Shown: piece by piece, positions 712 to 50,859 of the stretch
Numbering within the stretch: the stretch's first letter is position 1
Layout of the letters: every line of letters begins with the position of its first letter
Virus record (IMG/VR): IMGVR_UViG_3300008266_000146
Location: 1-52,475 of that record
Strand: one strand, 5' to 3'
Length of the DNA: 52,475 nt
Source of the DNA: a virus
Lineage: Duplodnaviria > Caudoviricetes
Made by a program: the position numbers and the translations under genes
Notes under the pieces: generated by a model
Databases searched by the model: none
Seen by the model: the letters and a program-made list of their open reading frames with translations, nothing else
Told to the model about the DNA's origin: nothing

Positions 712-746
712 TCGGTTACTCCGCCGAGTAACTGCTATCGACACGC

Positions 747-774
747 TGCCCCCTGTCGCTAATGACGGGGGGCA
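747..774 (+). terminator. GC-rich hairpin after the first gene (possible terminator or processing site)
   Basis: TGCCCCCTGTC-gctaat-GACGGGGGGCA, an 11-bp stem with one G-U pair; no U-tract. Confidence 0.4.
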
Positions 775-989
775 TCAGTCGGGAGCACACCACCCCGAAC
801 CCCCCGCACCAACGGAGGCATCAATGCGACAATAACTGACACCACCACATCGCTGGACACCCTTGGGGCTGGGCGGAGCCTGAAAACTCCCCCGGCATCC
901 AGCCTTCACGAGAGGCGGTCACTCGCCTCCCATGAGCGCTGCACCCTGCGCTATCACGCAACGCGCTATCATCGCGCCGGAGCACCACC

Positions 990-1247
990 ATGACCAGCAC
1001 CAAGAAAACCTATTCCGTCCTGTTCTCCGCCCCGTGGCACGACACGCGCGCCTGTGCCTACTGGGTCGGCCTCGCTGCCGATCCGAAGGACGCGATCAAT
1101 CAGGCTGTCTTCTACGACCTTGCGGACCCTGAACCGTCCGAAAACACCTACGGCAAGCCCGATGGCGGCGCGCTGGACGAGGACGTGGCGCAGGTCACCA
1201 TCGTCTGGCTGTGCGAAGGCGAGCTGCCGGCGTTCATCCACACGTAA
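990..1247 (+). CDS. Hypothetical protein (acidic, 85 aa)
   Basis: GGAG RBS upstream; stop TAA lies inside the box at 1244. Confidence 0.75.
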   Translation: MTSTKKTYSVLFSAPWHDTRACAYWVGLAADPKDAINQAVFYDLADPEPSENTYGKPDGGALDEDVAQVTIVWLCEGELPAFIHT

Positions 1248-1263
1248 CTCGGGGGAGTAACCA

Positions 1264-1521
1264 ATGACCCGCATGCCGGGCAGTCGGGAATACGCCATTG
1301 CGTGCTGCGTTCACTGCGGGGTGGCGTGGCCGACGACGCACTTCGTCGCTTACGGTCAGCAGATGCCATACTCATGCAGCGGCGGCGTTCGCTACCACGC
1401 CGTGGCACCGGCCTATATCGTCGACATCCTGCCGGGACATCCCACGCTGACGCGGGGTGTCAATGAGCGCTATCACGTGCTCGCCAAGCTCTTCCACGCC
1501 GCAAAGGAGACAACCTCATGA
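1264..1521 (+). CDS. CxxC/LAKLF family small protein, member A
   Basis: CCVHCG near the N-terminus, YIVD, C-terminal RYHVLAKLFH; RBS supplied by the box at 1244. Confidence 0.75.
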   Translation: MTRMPGSREYAIACCVHCGVAWPTTHFVAYGQQMPYSCSGGVRYHAVAPAYIVDILPGHPTLTRGVNERYHVLAKLFHAAKETTS

Positions 1522-1745
1522 CTAAGACCGCGTTCCTCGCCGCGCTCCGCCGGCACCTGATCGACACCTACCAGTGGGCTGCCGACGCGGCGAAACTGGA
1601 CCGCTTCATGGCCAGCGTCGAGGCCACGATCCGTGGGGACGTGAAGACGTGGAACCCCGACGGGGAGGCGTCGACGGCCGCGTGGCGCGAGATCGGCGGC
1701 ACCGGCAAGGTCGCTCTTCGCCGCCTGCGCGAGTTGGCCGAGTAA
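1518..1745 (+). CDS. Hypothetical protein (75 aa)
   Basis: AGGAG RBS, ATGA overlap with the upstream gene, stop inside the box at 1742. Confidence 0.75.
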   Translation: MTKTAFLAALRRHLIDTYQWAADAAKLDRFMASVEATIRGDVKTWNPDGEASTAAWREIGGTGKVALRRLRELAE

Positions 1746-1760
1746 CTTGGGGGAGTAACC

Positions 1761-2024
1761 ATGCGCTACGCACTGGTGTGCTGCCCCGAATGCGGCGATC
1801 TGTGGACAAAAGCGCGCCGTGACCCGCTGTTCACGCTCGGCGAGCGCACGCCTACAGTATGCAACGGCGAGTTCAAAGGTCGGTTCGGACACGAGCCGAC
1901 ACGTGTGGTCGTCGTCGACCTTGAGCCGGACTACATCGTCGACAGCCGTCACAAGCTGAGCAACCGAGAGAGCGACCGCTACCACACGCTCGCCAAGATA
2001 TTCGCCTCTAACTCCAAGGAGTAA
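1761..2024 (+). CDS. CxxC/LAKLF family small protein, member B
   Basis: CCPECG, YIVD, RYHTLAKIF; bounded by boxes at 1742 and 2008. Confidence 0.8.
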   Translation: MRYALVCCPECGDLWTKARRDPLFTLGERTPTVCNGEFKGRFGHEPTRVVVVDLEPDYIVDSRHKLSNRESDRYHTLAKIFASNSKE

Positions 2025-2029
2025 CCACC

Positions 2030-2332
2030 ATGGCCAAGATGACTGTCGCCGACGTTGCCACCGCGCTCCGCGATGCCGACGTGTCCACCCTGACCCCGGC
2101 GACCGCGCCGGACTGGCTCAAGATGATCGACTTCCTCCGCCAGCAGACGCTCGCTGCCATCGACGAGGTGGCCCTGCGCGCTGACGCGCTGGACGCACGT
2201 GAGAAGGCGGTCGCGGAGGCTGAAGCTGTGCTCGCCACCCGCAAGGCTGCCGTCGAGCGCATCATGTCCCTGCCGGGTGCGCACCCCGCCACCCCGCCGT
2301 CCACCAAGCGCTCCATGTGGAGCCTCCGGTAA
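2030..2332 (+). CDS. Hypothetical protein with a predicted coiled coil
   Basis: Bounded by boxes at 2008 and 2329; Ala/Glu/Arg-rich helical segment. Confidence 0.75.
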   Translation: MAKMTVADVATALRDADVSTLTPATAPDWLKMIDFLRQQTLAAIDEVALRADALDAREKAVAEAEAVLATRKAAVERIMSLPGAHPATPPSTKRSMWSLR

Positions 2333-2348
2333 CTCAGGAGAGTAACCC

Positions 2349-2609
2349 ATGTCCATCTACTGCCCTGCCCAAGGCCCGCCGCGCCTCATCCGGCTCATCC
2401 CCGCGCTCTTCCCCGACGGCTCGCTCGCCGTGCTGGACGAGAGGCGCAACTTCCTCATGGTGTCCGCCCCGCTGTTCGAGGGACTGACGCCCATCCAGCA
2501 GGAGCGGTGCCGGCGCACGACGCGCGCTATCACCATGCCGCATGACGTCGAACACCACCAAGACCCCATCCCCTTTGGCCGCAGCGCCGGCCGTAACTCG
2601 CAGGAGTAA
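2349..2609 (+). CDS. Hypothetical protein (86 aa)
   Basis: Bounded by boxes at 2329 and 2593; RBS from the upstream box. Confidence 0.7.
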   Translation: MSIYCPAQGPPRLIRLIPALFPDGSLAVLDERRNFLMVSAPLFEGLTPIQQERCRRTTRAITMPHDVEHHQDPIPFGRSAGRNSQE

Positions 2610-2615
2610 CACCCT

Positions 2616-3716
2616 ATGCCCACCCTTCAGCAGCTTGCCGGCATCATGCCGAACATCCTCGACACCGGCATCAGCGTCGAGTTGATCTCGTCGCCCGGCA
2701 TCGGCAAGTCCGACTTCGTCGAGCAGCTGGTCGCGTCGCGCACCGAGACCACCGGCATCAAGTGGGGCATGTCGCAGGCCTTCCTCGCGACCTACACCCC
2801 GCCGGACCTCATCGGCTACCAGTTCAAGGGTGAGCGCATGTGGCGCTCGCCGCACACTGGCGAGATGGAGCCGGTCGCCGTGACCGATCCGTCCATGCCG
2901 CTGTGGATGATTTCGTCCGAGGGCCGCCCGCTCTACGAGTACGAGCGCGGCATCCTGTTCCTCGACGAGTTCGGGCAGGGTGAGGCTGACGTCAAGCGCG
3001 CGGCGGCGCAATTGCTGCTCAAGCGCGAGATTGGTCCGTGGCGTCTGCCGCCCGGCTGGTCGGTCATGGCCGCGTCCAACCGCGCCAACGACCGCAGCGG
3101 CGTGACCAAGTCGTTCGACTTCGTCATCAACCGGCGCGTCGAGTACCACATCACCCCCGACCTGCTGTCGTGGGACGCATGGGCAATCTCGCGGGGTATC
3201 GACCCGCTGTTCGTGGCCTTCGCCCACCAGCACCCCGAGATTGTCTTCTCCGGCTCCGTGCCGAAGCAGCAGGGTCCGTGGTGCACGCCGCGCTCGCTCG
3301 TCATGGCGCATGACCTGCTCGTGGCGATCTCCGGCGGTGCCGGCCAGCCCATCCGCATGGATGATCTGGGTGCGGAGACCATGCGCGGCACCATTGGCGA
3401 CGCGGCCACGGCGCAGCTCAAGTCGTTCATCGACGTGTCCATGCAGCTGCCCTCGCTGGACGACATCGTCGACGATCCGACGAAGTGCGCGTTGCCGACG
3501 CGTGCGGACGGTCAGATGCTCGTCGTGTTCCAGCTGGCGCACGTTGCGCACAAGGACATCATGCGGCCCGTCGGCACCTACATCAACCGGCTCGGCGCGT
3601 CGTTCGAGACCATGTTCATCAAGCGCCTCATCGGTCGGTCGCCGACGTTCGCCATGGACCCGGTCATCGACAAGATGGTCACCCGCAACGCCCACCTCAT
3701 CCACGCGGTGGCGTGA
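2616..3716 (+). CDS. MoxR-like AAA+ ATPase
   Basis: Walker A SPGIGKS, Walker B ILFLDE, sensor-1 AASN, INRR and TPRS motifs; a vWA partner lies nearby. Confidence 0.85.
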   Translation: MPTLQQLAGIMPNILDTGISVELISSPGIGKSDFVEQLVASRTETTGIKWGMSQAFLATYTPPDLIGYQFKGERMWRSPHTGEMEPVAVTDPSMPLWMISSEGRPLYEYERGILFLDEFGQGEADVKRAAAQLLLKREIGPWRLPPGWSVMAASNRANDRSGVTKSFDFVINRRVEYHITPDLLSWDAWAISRGIDPLFVAFAHQHPEIVFSGSVPKQQGPWCTPRSLVMAHDLLVAISGGAGQPIRMDDLGAETMRGTIGDAATAQLKSFIDVSMQLPSLDDIVDDPTKCALPTRADGQMLVVFQLAHVAHKDIMRPVGTYINRLGASFETMFIKRLIGRSPTFAMDPVIDKMVTRNAHLIHAVA

Positions 3717-3777
3717 CGGTTACTCGCCGGAGTAACGGGGCGCGAATGCCCCACCGCCCCAACAGGAGCACGCACCA
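3717..3777 (+). repeat. 61-bp direct repeat, copy 1 (box + hairpin + RBS leader)
   Basis: Matches 6052-6112 with one mismatch. Confidence 0.9.
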
Positions 3778-3978
3778 ATGCGCACCACCTACACCATCAC
3801 CCTGCATGCCGATCTGGCTGACGACGCCGAGAAGCAGGCAGCGCTCGACCAGTTCATCCGCGACCGCGCCATCGAGACCATTGCTCTCGTCAAGCTGCTG
3901 GGCCTGTCCCGTCCGCCGGCCATCACGGCGACGCGCCACCGCTATGGCGACGGCACGGTGGACATCGACGTCACATGA
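3778..3978 (+). CDS. Hypothetical protein (66 aa)
   Basis: AGGAG RBS 9 nt upstream of the ATG; ATGA overlap with the next gene. Confidence 0.7.
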   Translation: MRTTYTITLHADLADDAEKQAALDQFIRDRAIETIALVKLLGLSRPPAITATRHRYGDGTVDIDVT

Positions 3979-4229
3979 CGCGCGCTATCATCGCCGACCG
4001 GCACTGGGCCTGCTGCCCCGACTGCAACAAGATGTGGCAGTCCAAACATCTGCGCGGCTACGCTCTTGGTTGCCGCACCCGGTTTGTGTGTATTTGCAGC
4101 CCACAGCCGCTCGCCCCCGGCGCCCCCCGCCTGATCGCTGTCGGTGACCTGCCGGAGCACAAGCCCGCCAAATACGTCTACGCCATGGCGAAGCTATTCG
4201 CCAGTAACTTGAAGGAGTTACCGAAATGA
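3975..4229 (+). CDS. CxxC/LAKLF family small protein, member C
   Basis: CCPDCNKMW at the N-terminus; YAMAKLF at the C-terminus. Confidence 0.75.
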   Translation: MTRAIIADRHWACCPDCNKMWQSKHLRGYALGCRTRFVCICSPQPLAPGAPRLIAVGDLPEHKPAKYVYAMAKLFASNLKELPK

Positions 4230-5608
4230 AGCTGCTCGAATTGACCCCCGCGCAGAAGGTGGAGTGGGAAGCCACCCGCACAGCGCTCATGTGGAGCGCC
4301 CCGGCGTTCACCCACCTGCTGTTCACCATCCTCGACTACCGGGCGCGCGACAACTACGCCAACGCGTTCTGGACGGACGAGGTGGAGATCGCCGCGACCG
4401 ACGGCTGGCGTCTGCTTCTCAACCCCACGACGTTCTTGGCGATCCCGCTCAAGGACCGCGTGTTCATCGTGGCGCACGAGATCATGCACTGCATCTGGGC
4501 GCACCCCGCCACCATGAAGCACTGGCAGCAGCGTGGCTATGTGGTCGGCGCAAAGGGCGATCACATCCCCTACCACCACGAAGTGCTCAACATCGCTGCC
4601 GACCTCATCATCAACGACCTGCTGATCGACAGCAAGATCGGCACATTCCCGGCCATCGGCGGCCTGCACGACAAGAACCTCGCCACCGCTGTGGACGCCC
4701 TCAACGAGGTGTACGAGCGCGTCTACAACAAGACGCCCAAGCAGCCGCAGGGCGGCAACGGGCAGGGGCAGGGGCAGGGGCAGGGGCAGGGGCAGGGGCA
4801 GGGGCAGCCCGGTCAGGGTAACTCCCCGAGTAACGGTCAGGGTGCCGCCGGCCAGATGCCGTCCCATGGCGGCAAGAAGGCGTTCGACACCATGATGGAC
4901 CCGGACGGCCATCCCGAGGATAAGCCCGCCGACGCCCATGCCAATGGCACGGCGCAGGGTGACGGTCGGTGGCGTCAGGCCATCGCCGAGGCTGCGGCTC
5001 TGGGCAAGGCGCAGGGGCAGCTGCCGGCCGGCATCGCCCGTGTCTTCGCCGAGCTGACGGAGCCCAAGGTCGACTGGTCCGGTGCCATCCGTGGCGCGGT
5101 CGCCCGCCGTGTCGGCTCGTCGGACAGCTCATGGCGTCGCCCGGACCGCCGCATGATCGTGCGCGACATCTACTCGCCCGGTCGCAGCGGTCACGGTGCC
5201 GGCACCATCGCGCTCGTCGGCGACACGTCCGGGTCCATGACCGACACCGAGATCGGCGTCATCCTGCGCGAGTTGCGGGGCATCTTGGAAGACCTCAACC
5301 CGCAGCGTGTCATCGTCATCTGGTGCGACGCCAAGGTCCATGCGGTCGAGGACGTCTACGACGCCAGCGACATCCCCTCCCTGCGGCCCAAGGGTGGCGG
5401 CGGCACCGACTTCCGTCCGCCGTTCCATTGGCTCGACGACGAGAGCATCACGCCGGACGGTATGATCTACGTGACCGACGGCTATGGCACGTTCCCGTCG
5501 AGCGCGCCCGACTACCCTGTGATCTGGGCCGACATCACCGGCCCCGGTCGCGTCGCCTACCCGTGGGGGGACGTCATTAACATCCCCCGCGACAGCCTCG
5601 CCGAGTAA
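4226..5608 (+). CDS. Metallopeptidase-like (HExxH) + vWA domain protein (DUF2201-like)
   Basis: AHEIMH zincin motif; MIDAS DTSGS, GGGTDF and TDGY; Gly/Gln linker; typical partner of MoxR-type AAA+ ATPases. Confidence 0.85.
   Translation: MKLLELTPAQKVEWEATRTALMWSAPAFTHLLFTILDYRARDNYANAFWTDEVEIAATDGWRLLLNPTTFLAIPLKDRVFIVAHEIMHCIWAHPATMKHWQQRGYVVGAKGDHIPYHHEVLNIAADLIINDLLIDSKIGTFPAIGGLHDKNLATAVDALNEVYERVYNKTPKQPQGGNGQGQGQGQGQGQGQGQPGQGNSPSNGQGAAGQMPSHGGKKAFDTMMDPDGHPEDKPADAHANGTAQGDGRWRQAIAEAAALGKAQGQLPAGIARVFAELTEPKVDWSGAIRGAVARRVGSSDSSWRRPDRRMIVRDIYSPGRSGHGAGTIALVGDTSGSMTDTEIGVILRELRGILEDLNPQRVIVIWCDAKVHAVEDVYDASDIPSLRPKGGGGTDFRPPFHWLDDESITPDGMIYVTDGYGTFPSSAPDYPVIWADITGPGRVAYPWGDVINIPRDSLAE
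4760..4807 (+). repeat. Perfect tandem repeat (GGGCAG)x8 encoding (GQ)8
   Basis: Eight identical hexamers in the linker of the vWA protein. Confidence 0.95.
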
Positions 5609-5673
5609 CTTCGCCGAGTAACCGGGGGCGCGCTATCACGGCGCGCTCCCACCACCCCAACAGGAGAACACCC

Positions 5674-6048
5674 ATGAAATCCTACCGCCGCAATGATCGT
5701 GAAGAGACGCGCGAAATCGAGCCCATTACGCTGGACTTGCCCGCCGCGCTCATCCACAAGCCGCTGCACGTCGTCACCATGGGCGCAAAGGCCACCGCGA
5801 TTGTCTACGAGACGGCCAACCGCGTCTGGAGCAGCGACCGTACCAACTATTTCGACGCTCCCGTGTTTCGTGTGGTGCTCACCGGGTTCAGCGACGCCGC
5901 GCGCAGCCGGCTGGCGTACTACAATGGGCACCGCGACGACGCCCAATGCTTCACCACTCTGCTCGACGTCGAGCTGTTCATTCGCGCGGCTGCCGTGGCG
6001 TGCGCCCCGGTCAAGAAGCGCGTCACGGTCGTCGAGGAAGACGTCTGA
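5674..6048 (+). CDS. Hypothetical protein (124 aa)
   Basis: AGGAG RBS; lies between boxes at 5605 and 6054. Confidence 0.7.
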   Translation: MKSYRRNDREETREIEPITLDLPAALIHKPLHVVTMGAKATAIVYETANRVWSSDRTNYFDAPVFRVVLTGFSDAARSRLAYYNGHRDDAQCFTTLLDVELFIRAAAVACAPVKKRVTVVEEDV

Positions 6049-6051
6049 CGG

Positions 6052-6112
6052 CGGTTACTCGCCGGAGTAACGGGGCGCGAATGCCCCACCACCCCAACAG
6101 GAGCACGCACCA
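6052..6112 (+). repeat. 61-bp direct repeat, copy 2
   Basis: Matches 3717-3777 with one mismatch. Confidence 0.9.
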
Positions 6113-6166
6113 GTGCCCATCAAGCCGCCGCTCGCCAAGCTCTTCCACGCTAACTCGCAGGAGTAA
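6113..6166 (+). CDS. 17-aa micro-ORF MPIKPPLAKLFHANSQE
   Basis: GTG sits at the same offset from AGGAG as the ATG at 3778 in the other repeat copy; encodes the LAKLF tail of the CxxC family; stop inside the box at 6150. Too short for the supplied ORF track. Confidence 0.55.
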   Translation: MPIKPPLAKLFHANSQE

Positions 6167-6171
6167 CCACC

Positions 6172-6402
6172 ATGGCTAGCCACTACTACGCTGAATGCGC
6201 CAGCGGCAAATCGCGCGCCAGCCGCACCGGCACTCTGAAGACCGGCATCCGCGCCGTCGTCGCGTCGTGGCAGGGGGCGTGCCACACCACCCTCTACGAC
6301 AAGGACGGCGTCACTTATGTCCGCGTGCATCTGGCGTTGTGGGGTGGCAAGGGCACGTCCAAGCTGATCTACGACGGCCCCGTCGGGGAGTACGCGCCGT
6401 GA
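6172..6402 (+). CDS. Hypothetical protein (76 aa)
   Basis: RBS from the box at 6150; ends GEYAP. Confidence 0.7.
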   Translation: MASHYYAECASGKSRASRTGTLKTGIRAVVASWQGACHTTLYDKDGVTYVRVHLALWGGKGTSKLIYDGPVGEYAP

Positions 6403-6671
6403 GCAATCCCCGCACCCACAGGCCGGGGCCGGGCTTTGCCGGCGACGCCGTCGAGCATGTGCGGCTCTACCATGGCGTCATGGACCTGCACAGCAAGAAC
6501 ATCCTGCGCACCATATTGCGCGGTGCGCTCGACAGCCACGCCCATATCGTCAAGGGACTGGCCGGCACCGCGACGCAGGCTTGGTTCGAGGACACGTTCA
6601 AGAACGACGTCGCGGCAGTCAACGATGCGATCTCGCTGCTGGACAGTAGCTCAGGGGAGTACGCGCCGTGA
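6399..6671 (+). CDS. Hypothetical protein (MSNPRTH..., 90 aa)
   Basis: GTG start in a GTGA overlap with GGAG RBS; 3' part of ORF 6195..6671; flanked by 18-bp direct repeats; ends GEYAP. Confidence 0.65.
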   Translation: MSNPRTHRPGPGFAGDAVEHVRLYHGVMDLHSKNILRTILRGALDSHAHIVKGLAGTATQAWFEDTFKNDVAAVNDAISLLDSSSGEYAP

Positions 6672-6991
6672 AGTATTTCGTCGCTGGCTGCCCGACATGC
6701 GGGCGGGTGTGGCAGTCCACCCATGCGCCGCTGCAACAGCTTAGCTCTCATTATGGGCTCTGTCGCGGCGGCACTGGCAGCCAAAAATACCCTATGACCG
6801 GCGACGAGATTGGACCTATCGCCGAGCATGTCACCTCGATGTATATCGTGTACATGCACGACCAGCCGCTAGCCGTCCGCAGCCATCAGTATAGGGAGGT
6901 AAACGGGCCGATCACCACCCTTTTACCCGCTGACGAACATGCTAGACTGTGGGCGCTCGCGAAGCTCTTCCACAGTAACTCCACGGAGTAA
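6668..6991 (+). CDS. CxxC/LAKLF family small protein, member E
   Basis: GCPTCGRVW, YIVY, LWALAKLFH; stop inside the box at 6975. Confidence 0.75.
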   Translation: MKYFVAGCPTCGRVWQSTHAPLQQLSSHYGLCRGGTGSQKYPMTGDEIGPIAEHVTSMYIVYMHDQPLAVRSHQYREVNGPITTLLPADEHARLWALAKLFHSNSTE

Positions 6992-6996
6992 CCTCC

Positions 6997-7575
6997 ATGA
7001 CCGCTGTCCAGATCGTAGGGTTGTGTGGCGTAGCGCGTGCCGGCAAGACCTCGACGGCCAACTTCATGAAGGTGGACAAGGGCTTCACCAACATCAGGTT
7101 CACCGACAGCATGGCCAAGATATGTCTCGCTGCCGGCCTGACACCCGACCACGTCGACGGACGCCTCAAGGACACCCCGGAGCCGTTACTCGGGGGAGCA
7201 ACACCCCGGCAGTTCATGGTTGGCATCGGGCGCACGCTGCGCGCGTTCAACCCCGAGTTCTTCCCCGAACACTGGCGCAGGCAGGTGCGCGCTATCACGC
7301 CGACGCTGCACCCCATGCTCCGCAAGATCGTCGCTGACGACGTCCGCACGCCCGCTGAAGCCGCTGCGATCAAGGCCGAGGACGGCGTCCTCATCCGCAT
7401 CATCCCCACCTATCCGGCCTATGCCAACGCCACCAGAGGCATCGACTATGACCCTGCGACTGAAGACCAGCAATTCGACGTCGACCACACCGTCCGCAAC
7501 GCCGGAAGCGCGTTCGAGCTTGCCGGACAAGTCTACGCCATCCTCGCCGCGACATGGCCGCGTCCTCTCGGGTGA
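6997..7575 (+). CDS. Deoxynucleoside monophosphate kinase
   Basis: N-terminal P-loop IVGLCGVARAGKTS; TPRQFM and DDVR..EA.AI...G.LIRI motifs typical of phage dNMP kinases. Confidence 0.8.
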   Translation: MTAVQIVGLCGVARAGKTSTANFMKVDKGFTNIRFTDSMAKICLAAGLTPDHVDGRLKDTPEPLLGGATPRQFMVGIGRTLRAFNPEFFPEHWRRQVRAITPTLHPMLRKIVADDVRTPAEAAAIKAEDGVLIRIIPTYPAYANATRGIDYDPATEDQQFDVDHTVRNAGSAFELAGQVYAILAATWPRPLG

Positions 7576-7576
7576 C

Positions 7577-7900
7577 GTGCTCGCCATCGGGTACTGCCCG
7601 GCGTGCGACAAAGCCGTGTACCGCACGTTCAAGGCCAAGACCATTCACAAGCGCCAGTGGGGCATCGGCAGCGCTGCCTATCAGTGCGTCGGCGATGTTG
7701 TGCAGTCGCATGGGTTTCCTTACAGGGTGCGTACATGGGCGCATCCCGGCGAGTTCGTGACGTTGATCCAGATCAAACCCGTCGCCAGACAGCTGGGTCG
7801 GCGCTCCGCGCCTACGCTCCCTGTAAACCCTAACATCCTGTCTGACAAAGCGCGTGCGCTCATGGCGATCCTCGCGTCCAGCCGTCACTCGGTGGAGTAA
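7577..7900 (+). CDS. CxxC family small protein, divergent member F
   Basis: GTG just after the kinase stop; YCPACD; C-terminal amphipathic ARALMAILA instead of LAKLF; stop inside the box at 7884. Confidence 0.6.
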   Translation: MLAIGYCPACDKAVYRTFKAKTIHKRQWGIGSAAYQCVGDVVQSHGFPYRVRTWAHPGEFVTLIQIKPVARQLGRRSAPTLPVNPNILSDKARALMAILASSRHSVE

Positions 7901-7903
7901 CCC

Positions 7904-8365
7904 ATGCACGGGTTCCAGATCGAAGAGTTCCGTCGCTCCATGCTGGAAGCCACGTGGCTTCTCGTCATCATGCTGACCACGGCGTGCAGCATGCTCATCG
8001 TCGGCATGCACCACGTGTCTGAGCCATCCTCGACGGTCCTCATCGTTGCGTCTGGCGTTGTCACCGTCACCGCCATGTTCGCCATGCGTGCGGCGGCGAA
8101 CGACGCTTGGCGGACGTACTGCTGGGACAACTACGACAGTGCGCTCGTCAGCCTGTACGCAGTGCTCGCTGAGGATGACGGCTCGCAGACCTACTTCGTC
8201 GCGCAGGAGCGGCACTCCGTCAAGAGCATCATGCACGCCTACAGCCCGGAGGACATCACGAAAGGCGTGAGATGGGCGCTCGCGCAGCGCAACCTCACCC
8301 ATGGCTCGACGCTCGTGCGCTACTGCACCGACGACGAAGTCGCATTCTTGGAGAACGACAGATGA
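7904..8365 (+). CDS. Hypothetical membrane protein (two hydrophobic segments)
   Basis: WLLVIMLTTACSMLIVGM and VLIVASGVVTVTAMFAM; RBS from the box at 7884. Confidence 0.7.
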   Translation: MHGFQIEEFRRSMLEATWLLVIMLTTACSMLIVGMHHVSEPSSTVLIVASGVVTVTAMFAMRAAANDAWRTYCWDNYDSALVSLYAVLAEDDGSQTYFVAQERHSVKSIMHAYSPEDITKGVRWALAQRNLTHGSTLVRYCTDDEVAFLENDR

Positions 8366-8586
8366 CCAGACCCCGCACCTACGACAGCCGCGAAGCATTC
8401 ATGTCCGCCCTCTCGGAGGCCATCGTTGCCGACGGCAGGACGCACGTCCAGCTCGCGCTCGCCACCAGCGTCTCGCATACAACGATCAGCCGCATTGTCA
8501 GCGGCGACACCCGCTGGCCGCGCTACACCACCATCTTTCCGCTCATCCAGACGCTGGGCCTCAAACTGTCGCTGGAACGTCGATGA
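8362..8586 (+). CDS. XRE/Cro-like helix-turn-helix protein
   Basis: THVQLALATSVSHTTISRIVSG.T..PR..TI..L..TLG matches the XRE HTH pattern; ATGA overlap and GGAG RBS. Confidence 0.8.
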   Translation: MTRPRTYDSREAFMSALSEAIVADGRTHVQLALATSVSHTTISRIVSGDTRWPRYTTIFPLIQTLGLKLSLERR

Positions 8587-8606
8587 CGGTTACTCAGGGA
8601 GTTACC

Positions 8607-8873
8607 ATGCGAGAGCCGTTCCGCGACTATCCCGAGGATATGCAAGAGCTTGAAAAAGTCCTTGCGGATGACGTCAAGGTGTTGTCGGTGCACCTCGCCC
8701 TGCTGCTGACTGGCGACGCTCCGGGCGTCAAGTCACCCCGCATCCCTATCGTGGCGATCATCAACGCTGCGCTTGAAGTCTACGGTAACCAGCCGTGGCT
8801 GGTCAGCGACATCAAGCGCCACTGCGAAGCGCTGGAAATACAAGCACGCATATACGCCAACAGATCAATATAG
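8607..8873 (+). CDS. Hypothetical protein (MREPFRDY...)
   Basis: ATG directly after the box at 8589, which supplies GGGAG. Confidence 0.65.
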   Translation: MREPFRDYPEDMQELEKVLADDVKVLSVHLALLLTGDAPGVKSPRIPIVAIINAALEVYGNQPWLVSDIKRHCEALEIQARIYANRSI

Positions 8874-8882
8874 GAGCACCCA

Positions 8883-11536: not shown

Positions 11537-11549
11537 CTCGGGGGAGTTA

Positions 11550-42214: not shown

Positions 42215-43491
42215 CAGTCCCACCCACGATCAGCAACAGCGACGTACTGCCAAGACGTGCGCGTGATCGCTCCAATAGCGCCGCTTGCGCGAAGCGAGAC
42301 GACGAGAAAGGTGTGGTACACGACCTCCATCGTGTTACGACCCGAGAGCATCCCCATGAGCGTCTGGTTGTTGCCGGTACTGTCGCTCAGACCCCTCGTG
42401 ATCTCACCGGGATTGTACCCATACTGCGACACAGTGTTCACAAGATATATCTCATGAAACTCCGGTAGTACGCCAATGTTATGCAGAAACGTGGCGATGG
42501 TAAACGTCGTCGGAATGGTTGTTTGCGCAGACCTGTACCGACCGTTCAACGCGTACGCGATGGCCGATGTTACCGCAGACCCGGAAGTTACCGCTTCGCC
42601 GACGAAGACGACCCACACAAGGTCAGCCGTGGAGCCGTTGCCGAGATACATCTTCCGTTCGTTGATGATGTAGGTGTATTGACCCGACGTAACAGATGCG
42701 ATGCCACCACGCTGGTAGATCGGCGCGAGCGCCGTCGAGCCGGCGGTGAGCGTGCCATCGGCGTTGACCGTGACAAACAGGAAATTGGTCGAGCTGGCGG
42801 CGAGCGACCCGAACGTCAGGTTCGCTGTTGTCTGCCCGACGCGCCTCGACAGGCCCTGATTGGCTGTCGCCACCAAGGGAAGCGTCGAAGACACATTGGT
42901 CGTGGTTATGGAAAGCGCGACGGCGGTTGACGGCATGAACGTCGGAATGCCGTTCGTGTCGGACGGAGCCATGTTGACCGACTGCCCGCGCAGCGTCGTG
43001 TAGGTGTTGGTCAGCGCGCCGGCAATGACATCGAGACCGCCACCAAGTGTCAGCTCCGCGCCGGCCGTGCTCGCCTCATTCGATCCGAGCAAGCGTTTTG
43101 CAGCACCGAGCGCGGCGAGGTCGGCGGCTGCCACCGAGCTTTTGGTCGCCAGCGACCCGAGCCCGAGCGCCGTACGCGCGCCGGACTGCGAATTGGCCCC
43201 GGTGCCGCCCTGTACGATGGACAGCGGCGTGGTGAGCCCGGACAACGAGGTAATGTCGGAGTTGGCCCCCGGAGCAGCGCGGTCCGACGACAGCACGCCG
43301 GAGGCGAACAGAAGGCCGCTACCGACAGTGATCTCTTCGGCCGCGCCCGTGCCCGCCGTCGTGCGGCCAATGAGGCGCGCAGTGGCCATCTGGATGGTGT
43401 GCGGCGCGTTCCAGTTGGACGGCTGCACGAGCGAGCTGTCGACACCGTCGGGCTTGGCGGAGACGAACTGGTGGACAATGCTGATCGCCAT
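42214..43491 (-). CDS. Tail fibre / receptor-binding protein 2
   Basis: N-terminus paralogous to fibre 1; GANSDITSLSGLTTPLSI.QGGTGA...ARTALGLGSLATK fibre motif. Confidence 0.8.
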   Translation of the reverse strand: MAISIVHQFVSAKPDGVDSSLVQPSNWNAPHTIQMATARLIGRTTAGTGAAEEITVGSGLLFASGVLSSDRAAPGANSDITSLSGLTTPLSIVQGGTGANSQSGARTALGLGSLATKSSVAAADLAALGAAKRLLGSNEASTAGAELTLGGGLDVIAGALTNTYTTLRGQSVNMAPSDTNGIPTFMPSTAVALSITTTNVSSTLPLVATANQGLSRRVGQTTANLTFGSLAASSTNFLFVTVNADGTLTAGSTALAPIYQRGGIASVTSGQYTYIINERKMYLGNGSTADLVWVVFVGEAVTSGSAVTSAIAYALNGRYRSAQTTIPTTFTIATFLHNIGVLPEFHEIYLVNTVSQYGYNPGEITRGLSDSTGNNQTLMGMLSGRNTMEVVYHTFLVVSLRASGAIGAITRTSWQYVAVADRGWD

Positions 43492-43494: not shown

Positions 43495-44085
43495 TCACAC
43501 CCTGTATTGCTGTGGAAACCGCCAAGGGGCAGCACCCATTGTGGACATCTGGGATGCGCGCTGCTTGGCTTCGGCAGCGCCTTTGACGAAGTACCCCCAG
43601 TTGATCTTCGCCATCGGAAGGTTCGTCCACGGCTTCATGGTCTGGCGCTGCAAGAGCGCCGACGTGCCGGAGAGGATGGCGTCGTACCAACGCTCGATGA
43701 CTTCGTTCGGAACGTCCGGGTAACCTTCCCGAGTAACCGGCAGGCGCACGCCCGTGGCAAACTTCGCGGTGAACACCGCGCCGTCGACGTTGGGGACGGT
43801 GGGGCAGCGGATGGTCGTGATGGACTGCATCATCCACCCTCTGGACGCATTGTCGTTCTCGTCGACGACCGACAGCAGCAGCTCGATCCGCCCTCGCGGA
43901 ATAGAGACGGTGTAGAGCTGCTGGCCAGTTATCAACTCGATGGTGGCTTCGCTGACCCACGCCAGAGAGTGGGGCAGGAACCAGTGCATCGCGTTGTAAA
44001 TCTCGCGCTTCAGCGTGTCGTCCACCGCGCCGGGGAACAACACGCGGAGATCGTCCATCAGCCTGTCGACGTCTTGCGTAGCCAT
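43495..44085 (-). CDS. Head-tail adaptor / tail tubular protein A-like
   Basis: Position after capsid; W.DAIL.G....L.....KPW motif. Confidence 0.6.
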   Translation of the reverse strand: MATQDVDRLMDDLRVLFPGAVDDTLKREIYNAMHWFLPHSLAWVSEATIELITGQQLYTVSIPRGRIELLLSVVDENDNASRGWMMQSITTIRCPTVPNVDGAVFTAKFATGVRLPVTREGYPDVPNEVIERWYDAILSGTSALLQRQTMKPWTNLPMAKINWGYFVKGAAEAKQRASQMSTMGAAPWRFPQQYRV

Positions 44086-47760: not shown

Positions 47761-47795
47761 ACCGACCTCCTTGGTGTCGCGGTTACTCGCGGGAG

Positions 47796-47978
47796 TTACT
47801 TCCCGCGCTTGCCCGCCATGAAGCCCTTGGCGAACAGGTTGCCCTTGTTGACCTTGTCGAGGGCCTTCTTGTCCGCTGCACGGTCCGCCTTGGAGCCCTC
47901 CTTCGGAGCGCCCTTGCGGCTATCCATGCGCTTGTCGATGGCCGAGCGCTCGAACTGCTTGGGGGTCATCTTCGCCAT
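47796..47978 (-). CDS. Small Lys-rich protein (MAKMTPKQFERS...)
   Basis: TGATG coupling with the upstream gene; stop inside the box at 47782; 3' end of ORF 47796..48575. Confidence 0.6.
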   Translation of the reverse strand: MAKMTPKQFERSAIDKRMDSRKGAPKEGSKADRAADKKALDKVNKGNLFAKGFMAGKRGK

Positions 47979-48205
47979 CACTGACCCGCCTTCGCCGAGT
48001 GGCCCGCGCGAGCGGTGCCGGCCGAGCCCTTGCCGAACATCTTGGTCGTGCCGCCGGACACGAACTTGCCGCCCGAGCCGCCGTTGTCGCTCTTGGCGGT
48101 GTGACCCGCCTTGGCGGTCGCTGCGCCGCCCTTGCCGAACATCTTGCCGGAACCGCCGGACATGAACTTTCCTCCGCCGGAGGATTTGCTGTTGACCTTC
48201 GCCAT
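47978..48205 (-). CDS. Small Gly/Lys-rich protein with an internal duplication
   Basis: GGKF.SGG..KMFGKG.A.TA.AGH.AK occurs twice; AGGAGG RBS. Confidence 0.7.
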   Translation of the reverse strand: MAKVNSKSSGGGKFMSGGSGKMFGKGGAATAKAGHTAKSDNGGSGGKFVSGGTTKMFGKGSAGTARAGHSAKAGQ

Positions 48206-48222
48206 ACCAATGGCCTCCTGCG

Positions 48223-50310
48223 CTATTGGGAACCACCGGAGATGTTGGTGCGCGGGCCAACGTCCCCAGATGCTTGGCCGCCCTGCGGCGTCTGACCGCC
48301 TTGGGCATCTGCTGCCTTCTCGCCGAGGCCGGCGTGGCCCGGTATGTTCTGCTGCGCGGCTTTGGCAGCTGCTGCCTTCTGCTGCGTCTCCAACTCGTCT
48401 TCCGACGGCACCACCTGAGCGCCGGAAATGCCGATGGTATCTGCCACCGACCGGAGCACCGTGGCTCGCCCCTTCGGACCCATGATCTGGGCATCCATCG
48501 GGTTGGCCGTGATGCCAAGGAACTCAAGTTGGCGAGCACGCTGCGTTTCCCGCTGCACTGCCACCTGCACGCCAAGAATGCGGACTTTCTCGTCGCCAGT
48601 CAACATCCCTGTTTCGTCGGTCATCATGATCATGTCGTAGAGCCCCATCAGGGCGGGCTCGTAGACATCGCGGTCGATGTTGGCGCAGACCGTCTGAAGC
48701 ATCTTGGACGCGTTGCCCATGAGCATGGCGAGGCCGGACGCGGTGCGCCCAGCGCCGGAGCCGGCAGCGCCGCCGGCCAGATACTTCGGGATGGCCGACA
48801 GGTCATCTGCGATGGCCATCATCTCCTTGTAGACGCCAAGGTGCTCGTGCGCGTTCGACTGCGGCTGGAAGAACTCGACCGGCTTCTGGGTCGAGTTGGT
48901 CAGCGGGTCATTGGTGACGTGCCAGCGCTTCCACGGGTACATCTCGTCGGCGTCGGCCCCGATGGCGATGCGGTCATCGTTCACGACCACCTGCGGGCCG
49001 GACGACATGGACAAGTTGTTGGCCAGCGAGCGGAGCGAGGCGTTGGCCATCTCCTGCACGTCGGCGAGGATGTCCGGCAAGGCGTTGCCCACTGGCGTTC
49101 CGGGCACCTTCTCGAACGACGTGATGTAGTAGGGGTGGCGCTTGCGCGGGCTCGGCGACAGCTGAACCTTCAGCACATGGCGGTCGATGATCCACGCCTG
49201 CACCATGTAGTCGCGCAGCGGGTCGGTCACGCCGGGTAGGTTATACCCGGCCAGCATGCTGCCCTGCACGTTGCCGTGGAACTCCAACATGGAGATCAGG
49301 CCGGAGCGGTTGAGGTGCGGGTTCTCGCGGCGCTCAAGGATCGCACGCGCGGCGTCGGTCTGGTCCCAGTTGTCGTACAGGCCGCCCGAGCCGTAGTCGG
49401 CGAGGCACTGGCGCACTGCTTCGGTGTTGTAGCCGGGGATGTCCAGCAGGTCGTTGAGATCGGCACGGGTGACGCGCGAGCGCTCGATGATCTCCGCGTC
49501 CTCGATGCGCGAGATGCCGGGCGTCCAGAACAGGTCGAACGGCGACACGCGCGACCAGATGAGGCGCGGCACATTGGTGATGACCGGCTGTCCCTGCTTC
49601 CACTTCACCGTCTGCACGATGCGGACTGTCGGCCCTTTGAGGCACGCGAACGGGAACAGCGGCAGGTCTTGGATGAACTCGCTGATCGCCCGGTAGAAGT
49701 CACCCTCGTTGAGGATTTCGTCGATCTTGTCCTGCGCAACCTTGGCCTGATCCTTGGCCCGCTTCTTGGAAGCGTCGCGAGCCGCCTTCATCAGCCCGAA
49801 GATGCGGTCGCGGATCATCGTGGGGTCGACGGGCATCCCCTGCTGCTGAAGCGCCGCCATTTCGGAGTTGGCCAGCGAGATGATGGCCTGCACGATGTTC
49901 GGCGGCACATCCGGGTCGGGAGCCGGGTCGATGCCCCATGCCCGCTCGTTCGTCAGGTAGACGTCTCGCAGCAGCGACGACGCGCCACGGCACTTCATGG
50001 CGGTCATGCGGGCGTAGATTTCGGAGCCGCCGAACTGCCGGACCTCCGCGAGCTTCTGCGGGTCGTACTCGCCGTTGAACGCCCGCATGGCGGCGAGCAG
50101 GCGGTGGTCCCAGCCCGACTGGGTGTTGGCGCGGTGAACGCGCATGACGTCGTAGCGCGACCGGATATAGCCCACCAGACCCTGAAGCTGCGCACTTCGC
50201 GCCGCCTCGTCTGCGTCCCGTTTGACCTTGCGCTCTTCCTCTTCGCGAGCCGCTAGCTGCGAATTGCTCGCTATACGAATGACGCCGCGCTGTGGGAGAG
50301 TGTTGGACAT
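48223..50310 (-). CDS. Portal protein
   Basis: 695 aa, first gene of the structural operon; RVSPFDLFW.P, GNALPD.L.D.Q, RTASGL.MLM podoviral portal-like motifs. Confidence 0.8.
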   Translation of the reverse strand: MSNTLPQRGVIRIASNSQLAAREEEERKVKRDADEAARSAQLQGLVGYIRSRYDVMRVHRANTQSGWDHRLLAAMRAFNGEYDPQKLAEVRQFGGSEIYARMTAMKCRGASSLLRDVYLTNERAWGIDPAPDPDVPPNIVQAIISLANSEMAALQQQGMPVDPTMIRDRIFGLMKAARDASKKRAKDQAKVAQDKIDEILNEGDFYRAISEFIQDLPLFPFACLKGPTVRIVQTVKWKQGQPVITNVPRLIWSRVSPFDLFWTPGISRIEDAEIIERSRVTRADLNDLLDIPGYNTEAVRQCLADYGSGGLYDNWDQTDAARAILERRENPHLNRSGLISMLEFHGNVQGSMLAGYNLPGVTDPLRDYMVQAWIIDRHVLKVQLSPSPRKRHPYYITSFEKVPGTPVGNALPDILADVQEMANASLRSLANNLSMSSGPQVVVNDDRIAIGADADEMYPWKRWHVTNDPLTNSTQKPVEFFQPQSNAHEHLGVYKEMMAIADDLSAIPKYLAGGAAGSGAGRTASGLAMLMGNASKMLQTVCANIDRDVYEPALMGLYDMIMMTDETGMLTGDEKVRILGVQVAVQRETQRARQLEFLGITANPMDAQIMGPKGRATVLRSVADTIGISGAQVVPSEDELETQQKAAAAKAAQQNIPGHAGLGEKAADAQGGQTPQGGQASGDVGPRTNISGGSQ

Positions 50311-50361
50311 GGCGGTTGTTTACCGTATATTCCGATGCCTTGGCAATAGGGATCATACACC

Positions 50362-50859
50362 ATGGATAGCCCGCCTAACAAGCCCGCCACCGAAGTAACA
50401 TCAGACAAGCTCGACACGACCATGCTTCAACTGGCGCGTGAGATCGCCATGGACATCTACCCGTTGTCCGACATCCTGTCGAACGCAGGGGTGTCGCACG
50501 ACCAGTGGGAGGTGATCCAGCGCAGCCCGCGCTTCGTCGCCTACCTGAGCGCCAATGTCGCGGAATGGTCGAGCGCCAAGAACTCAAGCGAGCGGCTGAA
50601 GCTCAAGTCGGCCATCCTTCTGGAAGAATGGCTGCCGACGCTCAACAACGAGCTGCACGGCAAGGACGCGTCGCTCAATGCCAAGGTAGAGGCCGCCAAA
50701 CTGCTTGCCAAAGTCGCTGGCGTCGACCGGATGCCCAGCGAAGGCGGCGACAGCTCCAACGGCTTTCAGGTCGTCATCAACCTCGGCGACCGCCGTATCG
50801 ACCACACGATTACTCTTCCGAGTAACCAGTATTCCACCGTAACCAATGAGCTTGACTGA
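50362..50859 (+). CDS. Putative terminase small subunit
   Basis: Helical protein with F.V.INLG near the C-terminus; TGATG-coupled to TerL. Confidence 0.6.
   Translation: MDSPPNKPATEVTSDKLDTTMLQLAREIAMDIYPLSDILSNAGVSHDQWEVIQRSPRFVAYLSANVAEWSSAKNSSERLKLKSAILLEEWLPTLNNELHGKDASLNAKVEAAKLLAKVAGVDRMPSEGGDSSNGFQVVINLGDRRIDHTITLPSNQYSTVTNELD

Follow-up and report, generated by a model that had tools for sequence, protein, structure and literature searches.

The uncultured podovirus record IMGVR_UViG_3300008266_000146, analysed over its whole length (the window, 52,475 bp, linear), carries a dispersed array of a bipartite palindrome, GTWACT-N5/6-AGTWAC (the box), which is under selection at the DNA level, is inherited within one phage clade and occurs in host DNA no more often than chance allows. 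We are about half persuaded that the box is a duplex-DNA recognition site, arrayed for a dyad-symmetric, phage-encoded protein that would be a putative regulator.

Number of copies and selection at the DNA level

The window contains 27 exact copies between positions 715 and 47782, four with a five-base spacer (N5) and 23 with a six-base spacer (N6), and a further 13 copies with one mismatch (two N5 and eleven N6), 40 in total. At the other spacers from 2 to 10 there are zero exact or one-mismatch copies in the window, and the four copies with two mismatches at N5/6 are background, the other spacers giving one to four each. The 23 exact N6 copies compare with 0.00 in 100 dinucleotide shuffles, and base composition predicts about 0.004 copies of the exact pattern. 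The ten-base core, GTWAC-N7/8-GTWAC, is present 28 times, against 0.07 in 200 shuffles. A sequence-only reading of the window had listed 27 exact and 15 near-exact copies, with 18 in the first 10 kb, and had put the chance expectation below 0.01 exact copies at a GC content of about 66%; the exact count and the chance estimate are right, while the one-mismatch copies number 13, the first 10 kb contains 17 copies with at most one mismatch and the GC content is 64.8%. In all 27 exact copies the first spacer base is a pyrimidine and the last a purine, as that reading had described.

Six relatives were compared, namely Rhizobium phage RHph_TM27A (TM27A), the host of which is Rhizobium phaseoli, and five IMG/VR genomes (G001 to G005). 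Ten core copies in the window are intragenic, against a mean of 0.22 and a maximum of 3 in 200 synonymous-codon shuffles within each gene, a procedure that leaves every protein and the per-gene codon usage unchanged. The same control gives 2.0 for TM27A, which has 19 intragenic copies, and 2.0 for G001, which has 12. Because synonymous shuffling abolishes the intragenic copies, it is the codons rather than the peptides that are under selection, and the proposal to that effect, made from recurring V-T-x-x-S-N peptides in unrelated proteins, is borne out; all the peptides named in it (VTPASN, VTLASN, VTSLSN, VTPESN, VTRRSN, VTPGSN, LTWPSN and ITLPSN) are found in the translated genes (Table 1).

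When the intragenic boxes are placed on protein alignments, many fall in inserts or low-complexity linkers that are absent from relatives, as in the primase (box 18519), a protein resembling von Willebrand factor type A domains (vWA-like, box 4818), an internal protein (box 30046) and the TM27A polymerase. The box in the TM27A helicase reads VTLDGN; the codons that relatives use there for V-T/S/A-L-D-N-D form no box. In close relatives the box stays at the same column with an altered spacer (helicase column 218 in G001, G002 and G004; ATPase column 235 in G001, G004 and G005), and a 2383-residue protein of about 28% identity has one box that the window shares with G001 and, at one mismatch, with G004. 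In distant relatives the intragenic boxes turn over. A check on homologous genes, suggested with the sequence-only reading, thus gave relatives that lack V-T-x-x-S-N or use other codons, and close ones that keep the half-sites while the spacer changes. Pairwise conservation is about 83% for the half-sites and about 72–74% for spacer and flanks, noisy and pseudo-replicated values that give a weak hint only. The arms of the box are its constant, selected part, and the free spacer and the W position adapt to the local context.

Distribution among relatives and absence from host DNA

At the DNA level nothing close to the window was found, a megablast of positions 20000–32000 against the phage collection giving no match. 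In culture, the window is most closely related to the Rhizobium phages RHph_TM27A/B, TM29 and TM3_14A, the closest of them podovirus-like; primase identity is 40% over the full length, and the gene order is kept. TM27A contains 33 core copies, mostly of the form GTTACC-T....A-GGTAAC and only at core spacers 7 and 8; G001 to G005 contain 32, 16, 13, 14 and 11 core copies, with the reversed pattern occurring 0–2 times.

A helicase profile search of IMG/VR gave 259 relatives, of which the best 80 were used for counts by locus; a further 26 loci were taken from genomes, making 106, and genes were searched for within 10 kb of the helicase. At least three copies of T[TA]AC-N7/8-GTAA are present in 65 of the best 80 IMG/VR loci, and over these 80 loci (1.32 Mb) the copies add up to 778, where eight other spacers predict 26.5. 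The sixth base pair varies by lineage (TTACC, TTACT or TTACG), as does the preferred spacer, some lineages having N5 only and others almost only N6. In a midpoint-rooted helicase tree the box arises near the base of one large ingroup, within which the helicases are 45–55% identical, and it is absent from 18 of 18 distant relatives (helicase identity at most 43%, mostly assigned to other bacterial classes). A blind scan of IMG/VR with the window-type 14-base pattern returned at least 113 stretches; 15 of 80 examined had three or more relaxed copies, and of these 15 arrays 12 encode proteins of the clade and a 13th shares its contig with two loci encoding such proteins.

Relatives are located in large contigs of Bradyrhizobium, Pseudolabrys, Xanthobacteraceae and Rhodospirillales genomes. 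Those integrated in Pseudolabrys, Xanthobacteraceae and Bradyrhizobium are at G007:C4 (about 31.6–137.2 kb), G008:C32 (about 51–108 kb) and G006:C166 and C111, and Pseudolabrys holds two tandem phage copies about 61.9 kb apart. A tyrosine integrase is present at the edge of two of them (G007 and G008). The integrase family PF00589 was not found in the window, which is 85% complete (CheckV), or in the complete genome G001, which has direct terminal repeats; for these reasons the clade is considered to mix temperate and apparently integrase-less members.

In four host-type genomes (20.4 Mb), the pattern TTACY-N5/6-RGTAA occurs 25, 29, 12 and 3 times, and 22, 28, 11 and 1 of these copies are within phage regions. 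Outside phage regions there are 7 copies, against about 4.3 expected by chance from the same half-sites at twelve other spacers (15, 9, 6 and 1); other spacers were used for the chance level, as a reversed-pattern control is unfair for this pattern. That the array might serve a host protein, either a CtrA-like or other alphaproteobacterial regulator acting on it or a regulator titrated by it as a decoy, is very improbable. In its favour, the known or inferred hosts of the relatives are Hyphomicrobiales, and the geometry resembles that of the CtrA box, TTAA-N7-TTAA, used by host CtrA on other alphaproteobacterial phages (PMC9437464). However, a host regulator is implausible because its own genome is without sites, the four genomes having the box only in prophages. 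In addition, TTAA-N7-TTAA has no match in the window, the box has invariant C/G where CtrA has A/T, N8 core spacing predominates, and the half-site variants track phage lineage and not host. The decoy proposed in the sequence-only reading is therefore not retained; DNA-level selection and a symmetric, dimeric DNA-binding protein, which were also part of its interpretation, are supported.

Symmetry and placement of the box

For a description of the box anatomy, each copy in the window and the six relatives (147 core copies) was oriented with the transcription around it. Of the 40 copies in the window, 23 are at gene junctions or intergenic and 17 are intragenic; neither the placement at junctions nor the sharing of the box by a clade was part of the sequence-only reading. 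About 15 of the 40 contain the stop codon of the upstream gene, 13 end 1–5 nt before a start codon, and the spacers of the junction copies hold Shine-Dalgarno sequences of the GGAG type. In the seven genomes, 70 of the 147 copies are intragenic, and 64 of these 70 are perfect GTTAC..GTAAC, mostly in frame to be read as V-T-x-x-S/G-N. Among the 77 junction or intergenic copies, 45 have GTAAC..GTAAC in the sense direction and only two the mirror form; mostly, the upstream gene ends at the TAA inside the 5' half. The oriented junction variant is attributed to tolerance of W at position 3 together with economy in placing the stop codon. Overall, arm position 3 is TA, giving the exact core palindrome GTTAC..GTAAC, in 94 of the 147 copies. 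Single mismatches are mostly at the outermost G/C (121 of 169), in agreement with the core of the broader clade, TTACY-N5/6-RGTAA.

A hairpin of RNA or single-stranded DNA, with a 7-bp stem and a loop of 3–4 nt and a role in mRNA stability, processing, pausing or coupling, was considered and is quite improbable. Its best point is that the N5/N6 alternative fits loops of 3 and 4 nt; some lineages, though, are fixed for N5 or for N6. Perfect copies have a predicted folding free energy of −4.5 to −4.7 kcal/mol, but the 45 GTAAC..GTAAC copies of the 77 at junctions contain an A·A mismatch and have a mean predicted RNA value of −1.2 kcal/mol, 76% being weaker than −2. Watson-Crick pairs at arm positions 6, 7 and 8 are present in 95, 65 and 48 of the 147 copies, at or below the 98.4, 76.4 and 52.8 expected from within-genome permutation of partners, so that there is no covariation. 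Wobble bias is uninformative as a strand test: at position 6 it favours the sense strand (in intragenic copies, 22 sense-strand G·U against 6 C·A), at position 7 the antisense strand (9 against 20). By pair statistics, within-genome permutation and folding, the hairpin was rejected as the main explanation. Both halves of the box show the same YY/RR flank preference, each half independently preferring GTTAC-Y-Y, which is what a two-fold symmetric protein would impose on duplex DNA. Such a DNA-binding protein fits the box better than a hairpin does, in line with the dimeric protein that had been proposed from the sequence.

The box may alternatively be a start-associated junction cassette, an oriented unit of stop codon, Shine-Dalgarno sequence, GTAAC and ATG acting on the mRNA, with the intragenic copies secondary; it would serve translational coupling, repression or cleavage at the ribosome-binding site, or, in the manner of SAS or PeSL elements (see the comparison with known systems), a modular exchange of early genes for which it is the linker. 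The stop- and start-linked copies and the 45-to-2 excess of the sense form described above agree with such a unit. In locus L084, 13 copies of a different box are present, GGTAACAC, which is directly followed by ATG or TTG in 10 of the 13 and has a degenerate 5' half holding TAA or TGA. Mismatches at junctions fall more often in the 5' half than in the 3' half (50 against 30, p=0.03, seven genomes), the early genes between boxes are lineage-specific ORFans, and nucleotide homology ends near boxes about twice as often as at random (P 0.06–0.17 per pair), an enrichment that falls short of significance and for which gene boundaries are a confounder. Against the cassette, the 17 intragenic copies in the window and the 70 in the seven genomes have neither Shine-Dalgarno sequence nor start codon, they are the most perfect dyads and they are under synonymous-site selection; moreover, without pairing, for which there is no support, an RNA role does not explain the flank symmetry. 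We consider the cassette unlikely as the primary role of the box.

Genome organisation and spacing of the boxes

The genome starts with a plus-strand gene block (1 to about 21,143) with many small ORFan early genes first, followed by genes for an ATPase, the vWA-like protein, a dNMP kinase, a family-A DNA polymerase, a RecB-type exonuclease, an SNF2 helicase and a 1002-residue primase-helicase. A minus-strand block (21,147–50,356) encodes the 2383-residue virion protein, a transglycosylase-bearing internal protein, further internal virion proteins, an endolysin, tail fibres, capsid and portal. Beyond it, a small gene and the large terminase gene are again on the plus strand. Pfam and PHROG scans of the 58 window open reading frames (ORFs) revealed no phage RNA polymerase. 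The C-terminal region of the 2383-residue protein (21438–28589, minus strand) matches a PHROG annotated as 'DarB-like antirestriction' (E 5e-18). A virion RNA polymerase with hairpin promoters, as in N4-like phages, was rejected, as this protein matches no polymerase family and has only the DarB-like C-terminus.

Boxes are found about once per 0.6 kb in the early operon and once per 2.5 kb in the late genes. The gaps are more even than expected from random placement, both in the late block of the window (11 sites, 1.4–4.1 kb, coefficient of variation 0.32, P=0.0003) and in its early block (coefficient of variation 0.56, P=0.0009). Spacing of this kind would be expected if the array were a chromosome-wide identity or loading signal, with gaps of about 4 kb or less, by which a phage machine distinguishes its own DNA from that of the host; priming by the primase-helicase, Chi-like control of recombination or nucleases, compaction or ejection, and nucleation of a protective coat were considered, in place of gene-specific regulation. 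The absence of the box from host DNA, its presence in essential late genes, in inserts and at a coding cost, and the fact that a palindrome functions on both strands would all suit a self-marking signal, and the phage has its own primase-helicase, SNF2 helicase, RecB-type exonuclease and DarB-like virion protein. However, even late spacing is weak or absent in the relatives (P 0.10, 0.04, 0.5 and 0.25), and an early density three to four times higher and the precise placement at gene starts are not predicted by a pure spacing signal. To our knowledge, no primase or Chi-type system has a 12–14-bp dyad. Self-marking is an improbable reading of the array. It is likewise doubtful that the spacing is a bar code of 'self', maintained by selection to the extent that codons were inserted into essential genes; its machine could be the winged-helix protein described below, acting with the SNF2 helicase, the primase-helicase or the DarB-like protein that is injected. 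If true, tailed phages would have a cis-acting system of genome identity of a new kind, which might serve priming, the control of recombination, compaction or ejection, or nuclease protection.

Candidate readers and proposed mode of action

Two candidates for DNA-binding proteins are present among the 58 window ORFs, a helix-turn-helix protein of the HTH_3 family (8362–8586) and a protein of 101 residues (12014–12319), the same two that had been singled out from the sequence. The HTH_3 protein has no homologue in the six compared relatives. The 101-residue protein is conserved in TM27A (EVB29_062), G001, G004 and G005 and has 72 metagenomic relatives. The family has invariant residues in the segments ..IHRLRRRL.. 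and ..R.VGYW.., which we take to be the recognition helix and the wing of OmpR/PhoB effector domains. The family profile gives weak matches in the PDB to OmpR-family DNA-binding domains (2m1b, AdeR and WalR, E 0.06–1.1), an Atlas model of the protein has a TM score of 0.69 to a Trans_reg_C (PF00486) cluster, and PF00486 is matched at E≤0.1 by 34 of 61 relatives; the window protein itself has no Pfam match at E≤0.01. A 214-residue relative in G011 is above the Pfam cut-off (38.8 bits) and matches the small protein of G001 at E 0.0014. Proteins of 214–216 residues, with a C-terminal Trans_reg_C domain and an N-terminal helix-turn-helix-like stretch, are encoded at G011:C1 45863–46507 (L246 564–1208) and G012:C1 about 1196–1843, in a subclade without the small winged-helix gene. 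The 101-residue protein consists of the DNA-binding domain only, without an N-terminal receiver domain, and it is plausible that it is a stand-alone winged-helix protein of the OmpR/PhoB type.

The winged-helix gene is preceded by a sigma-70-type promoter both in the window and in TM27A. It is found in 34 of the 80 IMG/VR loci and in 5 of the 26 genome loci, and all loci that contain it also have the box except L085 and L103 (0 and 2 copies of TTAC-N7/8-GTAA). When gene families were profiled against the box, the top families were a 241-residue unknown, dCMP deaminase, the winged helix and the vWA/ATPase pair, a ranking confounded by subclade structure; dCMP deaminase and the 241-residue family probably co-occur with the box through shared ancestry.

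In the proposed mode of action, two inverted half-sites, 5'-GTTACYY, with cores 11–12 bp apart, would be read by a two-fold symmetric phage protein. The winged-helix protein, a middle-region gene product, would be made from its own sigma-70-type promoter and would then occupy roughly 40 sites, densest in the early operon, where they are at nearly every second gene junction. As no phage RNA polymerase was found, the host polymerase must be steered, and binding may control its transcription genome-wide, as an early shut-off or a roadblock; the operator array would gate early transcription by a logic like that of stoperators and, in integrated (lysogenic) relatives, possibly helps to silence the prophage. 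At a junction, the site would be placed at no cost, with the 5' half providing the TAA stop, the spacer the Shine-Dalgarno sequence and the 3' half filling the gap to the ATG, while in long late genes it would be written into variable linkers as V-T-x-x-S/G-N.

Several observations weigh against this proposal. Mixed N5 and N6 spacing in one genome is unusual for a rigid dimer, the sites in late genes are hard to square with a simple roadblock, since late transcription must pass them, and only one box in the window is convincingly beside a promoter. In L084, the 3' half and the ATG are far better kept than the 5' half; with the 5'-half mismatch bias at junctions, this is a hint of a directional, start-linked role. 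In at least 14 box-bearing loci that extend 6 kb or more upstream of the helicase, no member of the winged-helix family was detected, and the box is kept by two inner subclades and two basal members in which no winged-helix gene is detectable within 10 kb of the helicase. Of four complete box-bearing genomes without the small gene near the helicase, two have a longer winged-helix protein elsewhere; the other two, G010 and G013, have no winged helix by family profile or PF00486. Recognition helix and wing show no clean covariation with the half-site type or spacing of the lineage, the only hint being an unusual wing shared by two N5-only loci, which are close kin. Because box-bearing subclades and genomes lack a detectable winged-helix gene, naming the 12014–12319 protein or a relative of it as the most likely reader, on the strength of co-occurrence, is a tentative choice that falls somewhat short of probable.

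A confirmed reader would define a family of stand-alone OmpR-type phage regulators and give a handle on temporal control in podoviruses without their own RNA polymerase. The cultured phage TM27A on the non-pathogenic Rhizobium phaseoli is a suitable study system, offering a candidate reader with a conserved recognition helix and a clean host-genome control. With the box kept across a deep clade that numbers more than 250 uncultured relatives and has drifting half-sites, the co-evolution of reader and site can be compared. The box also illustrates how selection on DNA shapes proteins, placing V-T-x-x-S/G-N in polymerase, primase and virion proteins.

Positions of the boxes and further sequence features

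Table 1. Boxes and associated features in the window. 'ATG +n nt' indicates the next start codon, n nt beyond the box.
Feature	Position	Strand	Spacer	Match	Context
Box	715–732	+	N6	exact, perfect dyad	intergenic, 3 nt past stop of gene 1–711
Box	1244–1261	+	N6	exact	junction; TAA stop of 990–1247 in 5' half, GGGGGAG spacer; ATG +2 nt
Box	1742–1759	+	N6	exact	junction; contains stop of 1518–1745; ATG +1 nt
Box	2008–2025	+	N6	1 mismatch (CTAACT)	junction; contains stop of 1761–2024; ATG +4 nt
Box	2329–2346	+	N6	exact	junction; contains stop of 2030–2332; ATG +2 nt
Box	2593–2610	+	N6	exact	junction; stop of 2349–2609 in 3' half; ATG of ATPase gene +5 nt
Box	3719–3736	+	N6	exact, perfect dyad	intergenic past ATPase gene; GC-rich hairpin next, repeated at 6072
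Box	4204–4221	+	N6	exact (GTAACT..AGTTAC)	within last codons of 3975–4229; next ATG +4 nt
Box	4818–4834	+	N5	exact	inside vWA-like gene 4226–5608 (GNSPSN), insert that relatives lack
Box	5605–5622	+	N6	exact	contains stop of 4226–5608
Box	6054–6071	+	N6	exact, perfect dyad	intergenic past 5674–6048; downstream hairpin as at 3737
Box	6150–6167	+	N6	1 mismatch	ATG of 6172–6402 +4 nt
Box	6975–6992	+	N6	exact	junction; stop of 6794–6991 in 3' half; ATG of dNMP kinase gene +4 nt
Box	7185–7202	+	N6	1 mismatch	inside 6997–7575
Box	7884–7901	+	N6	1 mismatch	junction; ATG +2 nt
HTH_3 (Xre-type) gene	8362–8586	+			74 residues, second DNA-binding candidate
Box	8589–8605	+	N5	exact	junction directly past HTH_3 gene; ATG +1 nt
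Box	9563–9580	+	N6	exact, perfect dyad	intergenic, upstream of DNA polymerase gene; TTGACT hexamer 4 nt on
Box	10556–10573	+	N6	1 mismatch	inside DNA polymerase gene (LTWPSN)
Box	11533–11550	+	N6	1 mismatch	contains stop of polymerase gene
Box	11926–11943	+	N6	exact	ends 18 nt upstream of −35 hexamer of promoter-like site before winged-helix gene
Sigma-70-like promoter	11962–11990	+		11/12	TTGACA-17-TATACT, before winged-helix gene
Winged-helix gene	12014–12319	+			putative 101-residue stand-alone OmpR/PhoB-type protein, candidate reader
Box	12304–12320	+	N5	exact, perfect dyad	overlaps last codons and stop of winged-helix gene
Box	13618–13635	+	N6	exact	junction; ATG of 13637–14035 +1 nt
Box	14284–14300	+	N5	1 mismatch	inside SNF2 helicase gene
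Box	15925–15942	+	N6	1 mismatch	intergenic, starts 1 nt past stop of 15541–15924
Box	16982–16999	+	N6	exact, perfect dyad	inside 15965–17272 (VTPASN), variable Ala/Pro-rich linker
Box	18519–18536	+	N6	exact, perfect dyad	inside primase-helicase gene (VTLASN), stretch absent in relatives
Box	20348–20365	+	N6	1 mismatch	first base is last base of primase stop; an ATG +3 nt
Box	21424–21441	−	N6	exact	junction; contains stop of 21438–28589; ATG of 21147–21422 +1 nt
Box	22434–22450	−	N5	1 mismatch	inside 2383-residue virion protein gene
Box	23874–23891	−	N6	exact, perfect dyad	inside 2383-residue protein gene (VTSLSN)
Box	25713–25730	−	N6	exact, perfect dyad	inside 2383-residue protein gene (VTPESN); same alignment columns as G001 box and one-mismatch G004 box
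Box	27438–27455	−	N6	exact, perfect dyad	inside 2383-residue protein gene (VTRRSN)
Box	30046–30063	−	N6	exact, perfect dyad	inside internal-protein gene 28597–31998 (VTPGSN), in insert
Box	33406–33422	−	N5	exact, perfect dyad	inside ORF 33052–33540
Box	36134–36151	−	N6	exact, perfect dyad	inside 36005–36412 (VTPESN)
Box	38691–38708	−	N6	exact	junction; start of 38407–38688 +2 nt
Box	41984–42001	−	N6	1 mismatch	inside 41789–42214 (FTLASN)
Box	43720–43737	−	N6	1 mismatch to window form, exact for core GTWAC-N8-GTWAC	inside 43495–44085
Box	47782–47799	−	N6	exact	contains stop of 47796–47978
Box	50809–50826	+	N6	1 mismatch	inside 50362–50859 (ITLPSN), gene preceding large terminase

The stretches 3719–3765 and 6054–6100 are nearly identical, sharing the box and about 25 further bases (a hairpin, GGGGCGCGAATGCCCC, followed by ACC.CCCCA), and are located after the ATPase gene and after 5674–6048. 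This hairpin looks like a terminator without a T run; box 5605 has a different GC-rich hairpin downstream. ORFs 1761–2024 and 3975–4229 are paralogues with 30% identity, and several small early ORFs share the C-terminal peptide ..LAKLF/IFH or A, with a junction box directly after it (1987–2034, 4180–4229, 6129–6176 and 6950–6996). The early region seems to expand by duplication of units made up of an ORF and a box.

Some members of the ingroup that do not have the standard box contain different repeated boxes. Apart from L084, these include L106, with four copies of the perfect palindrome CCTCGTACGAGG, and L085, with five to six sites of a related variant, AACTA-N4-TAGTT. In L094 (9138–9611), a unit of about 36 nt containing AGCGAGCCA is repeated about ten times, mostly in 36-nt steps. 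Triple GTWAC half-sites at steps of 12–13 bp, in which boxes overlap or are adjacent, are present in G001 (767–796, 12807–12837 and 13779–13809) and G002 (378–419); they occur in none of 106 other loci and are not a general feature.

The tail-fibre-like genes 39273–41789 and 42214–43491 (minus strand) have a common region with 53% identity; the N-terminus of both products resembles TM27A EVB29_006, while the C-terminal parts resemble fibres of Pelagibacter and cyanobacterial podoviruses. Genes of nucleotide metabolism are represented by the dNMP kinase gene (6997–7575) in the window and by a dCMP deaminase gene in relatives (G001 26387–26800). Over positions 1–20000, contigs of four public DNA runs are either identical to the window or too fragmentary for comparison at the level of sites; the public runs listed as containing the sequence include none of RNA. 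At 13238/13239, in the region of the exonuclease gene, contigs of two public DNA runs (X6 and X8) contain 131 extra letters and are otherwise nearly identical.

Comparison with known systems

More than ten years after dispersed phage-specific boxes became known, among them stoperators, the start-associated sequences (SAS) and the Cluster O repeats, most are still without an assigned function. The present box, in sequence and architecture, appears to be undescribed, and to belong to this known kind of functionally unsolved phage element: no paper on RHph_TM27A was found and none on conserved inverted repeats of Rhizobium phages that describes it, in a search that did not use the motif letters themselves and did not cover supplements.

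The closest described analogue, although not of the same family, is the 17-bp dyad repeat TGTTCGG-N3-CCGAACA of the Cluster O mycobacteriophages (Corndog), which has 34 copies, about one third of them intragenic, and for which the authors predicted a dimeric DNA-binding protein and stated the function to be unknown (PMC4351075). Both elements have more than 30 copies genome-wide, with nearly invariant arms and a free spacer, are intergenic as well as intragenic, are denser in the non-structural part of the genome and have no obvious link to promoters. The Cluster O repeat is unrelated in sequence, has a spacer fixed at 3 bp instead of N5/N6 and belongs to a siphovirus lineage of Mycobacterium, a host of another phylum. 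According to its authors it is not closely tied to translation starts, whereas about a third of the boxes overlap stop codon, Shine-Dalgarno sequence and start codon. For the box, unlike the Cluster O repeat, inheritance has been followed across a deep clade in which the half-sites drift, and there is a named candidate reader.

Stoperators, bound by the L5 repressor gp71 in Cluster A mycobacteriophages, are likewise short sites with tens of copies genome-wide and are thought to act on elongating RNA polymerase and silence the genome (PMC4351075, PMC3203893). Their hosts are temperate phages, and some box-bearing relatives are integrated beside a tyrosine integrase. However, stoperators are 13-bp, asymmetric sites oriented with transcription and bound by an immunity repressor, while the box is a dyad of 17–18 bp and often intragenic. 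Perfect boxes are without orientation; only the GTAAC..GTAAC junction variant is oriented, mostly because of the embedded TAA stop.

SAS and ESAS are found in Cluster K mycobacteriophages and Cluster EF Microbacterium phages (PMC3203893, PMC7302621). Like the junction boxes, they are located at the ribosome-binding site, 3–7 bp before the start codon, with the Shine-Dalgarno core within and sometimes the upstream stop codon inside; they are also absent from the host genome, their consensus varies by subcluster and the ESAS arms do not support RNA pairing. SAS are asymmetric, have a single orientation and accompany non-structural genes only, whereas in the box it is the dyad arms and not the Shine-Dalgarno sequence that are conserved, and the intragenic copies include some in virion genes. 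The 13 boxes that end 1–5 nt before a start codon have a Shine-Dalgarno sequence in the spacer and the other 27 do not follow this arrangement; 12 boxes lie in the minus-strand virion block and one more (50809) before the large terminase gene.

CtrA boxes occur in the same alphaproteobacterial host class and also consist of two AT-rich tetramers about one helical turn apart, and CtrA is a winged-helix reader of the OmpR family (PMC9437464), as the candidate reader of the box may be. They are sites of a host regulon, concentrated in one promoter-rich region, whereas the box is dispersed and missing from host DNA; the core TTAC-N7/8-GTAA differs further in the C/G positions and the N8 preference given above. 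PeSL cassettes of T4-type phages resemble the box in that repeated short motifs flank variable early ORFs, for which modular shuffling has been proposed (PMC2839356, PMC4122927). However, PeSLs consist of a promoter plus a stem-loop and are restricted to hyperplastic regions, and most boxes are without an evident promoter. No ParB or MatP family turned up in the scans of the 58 window ORFs, and the boxes are dispersed and not clustered as parS or matS sites are. The box fits the sequence definition of none of the compared systems and differs from them by combining a dyad, overlap with stop codon, Shine-Dalgarno sequence and start codon, intragenic copies and deep conservation throughout a clade.

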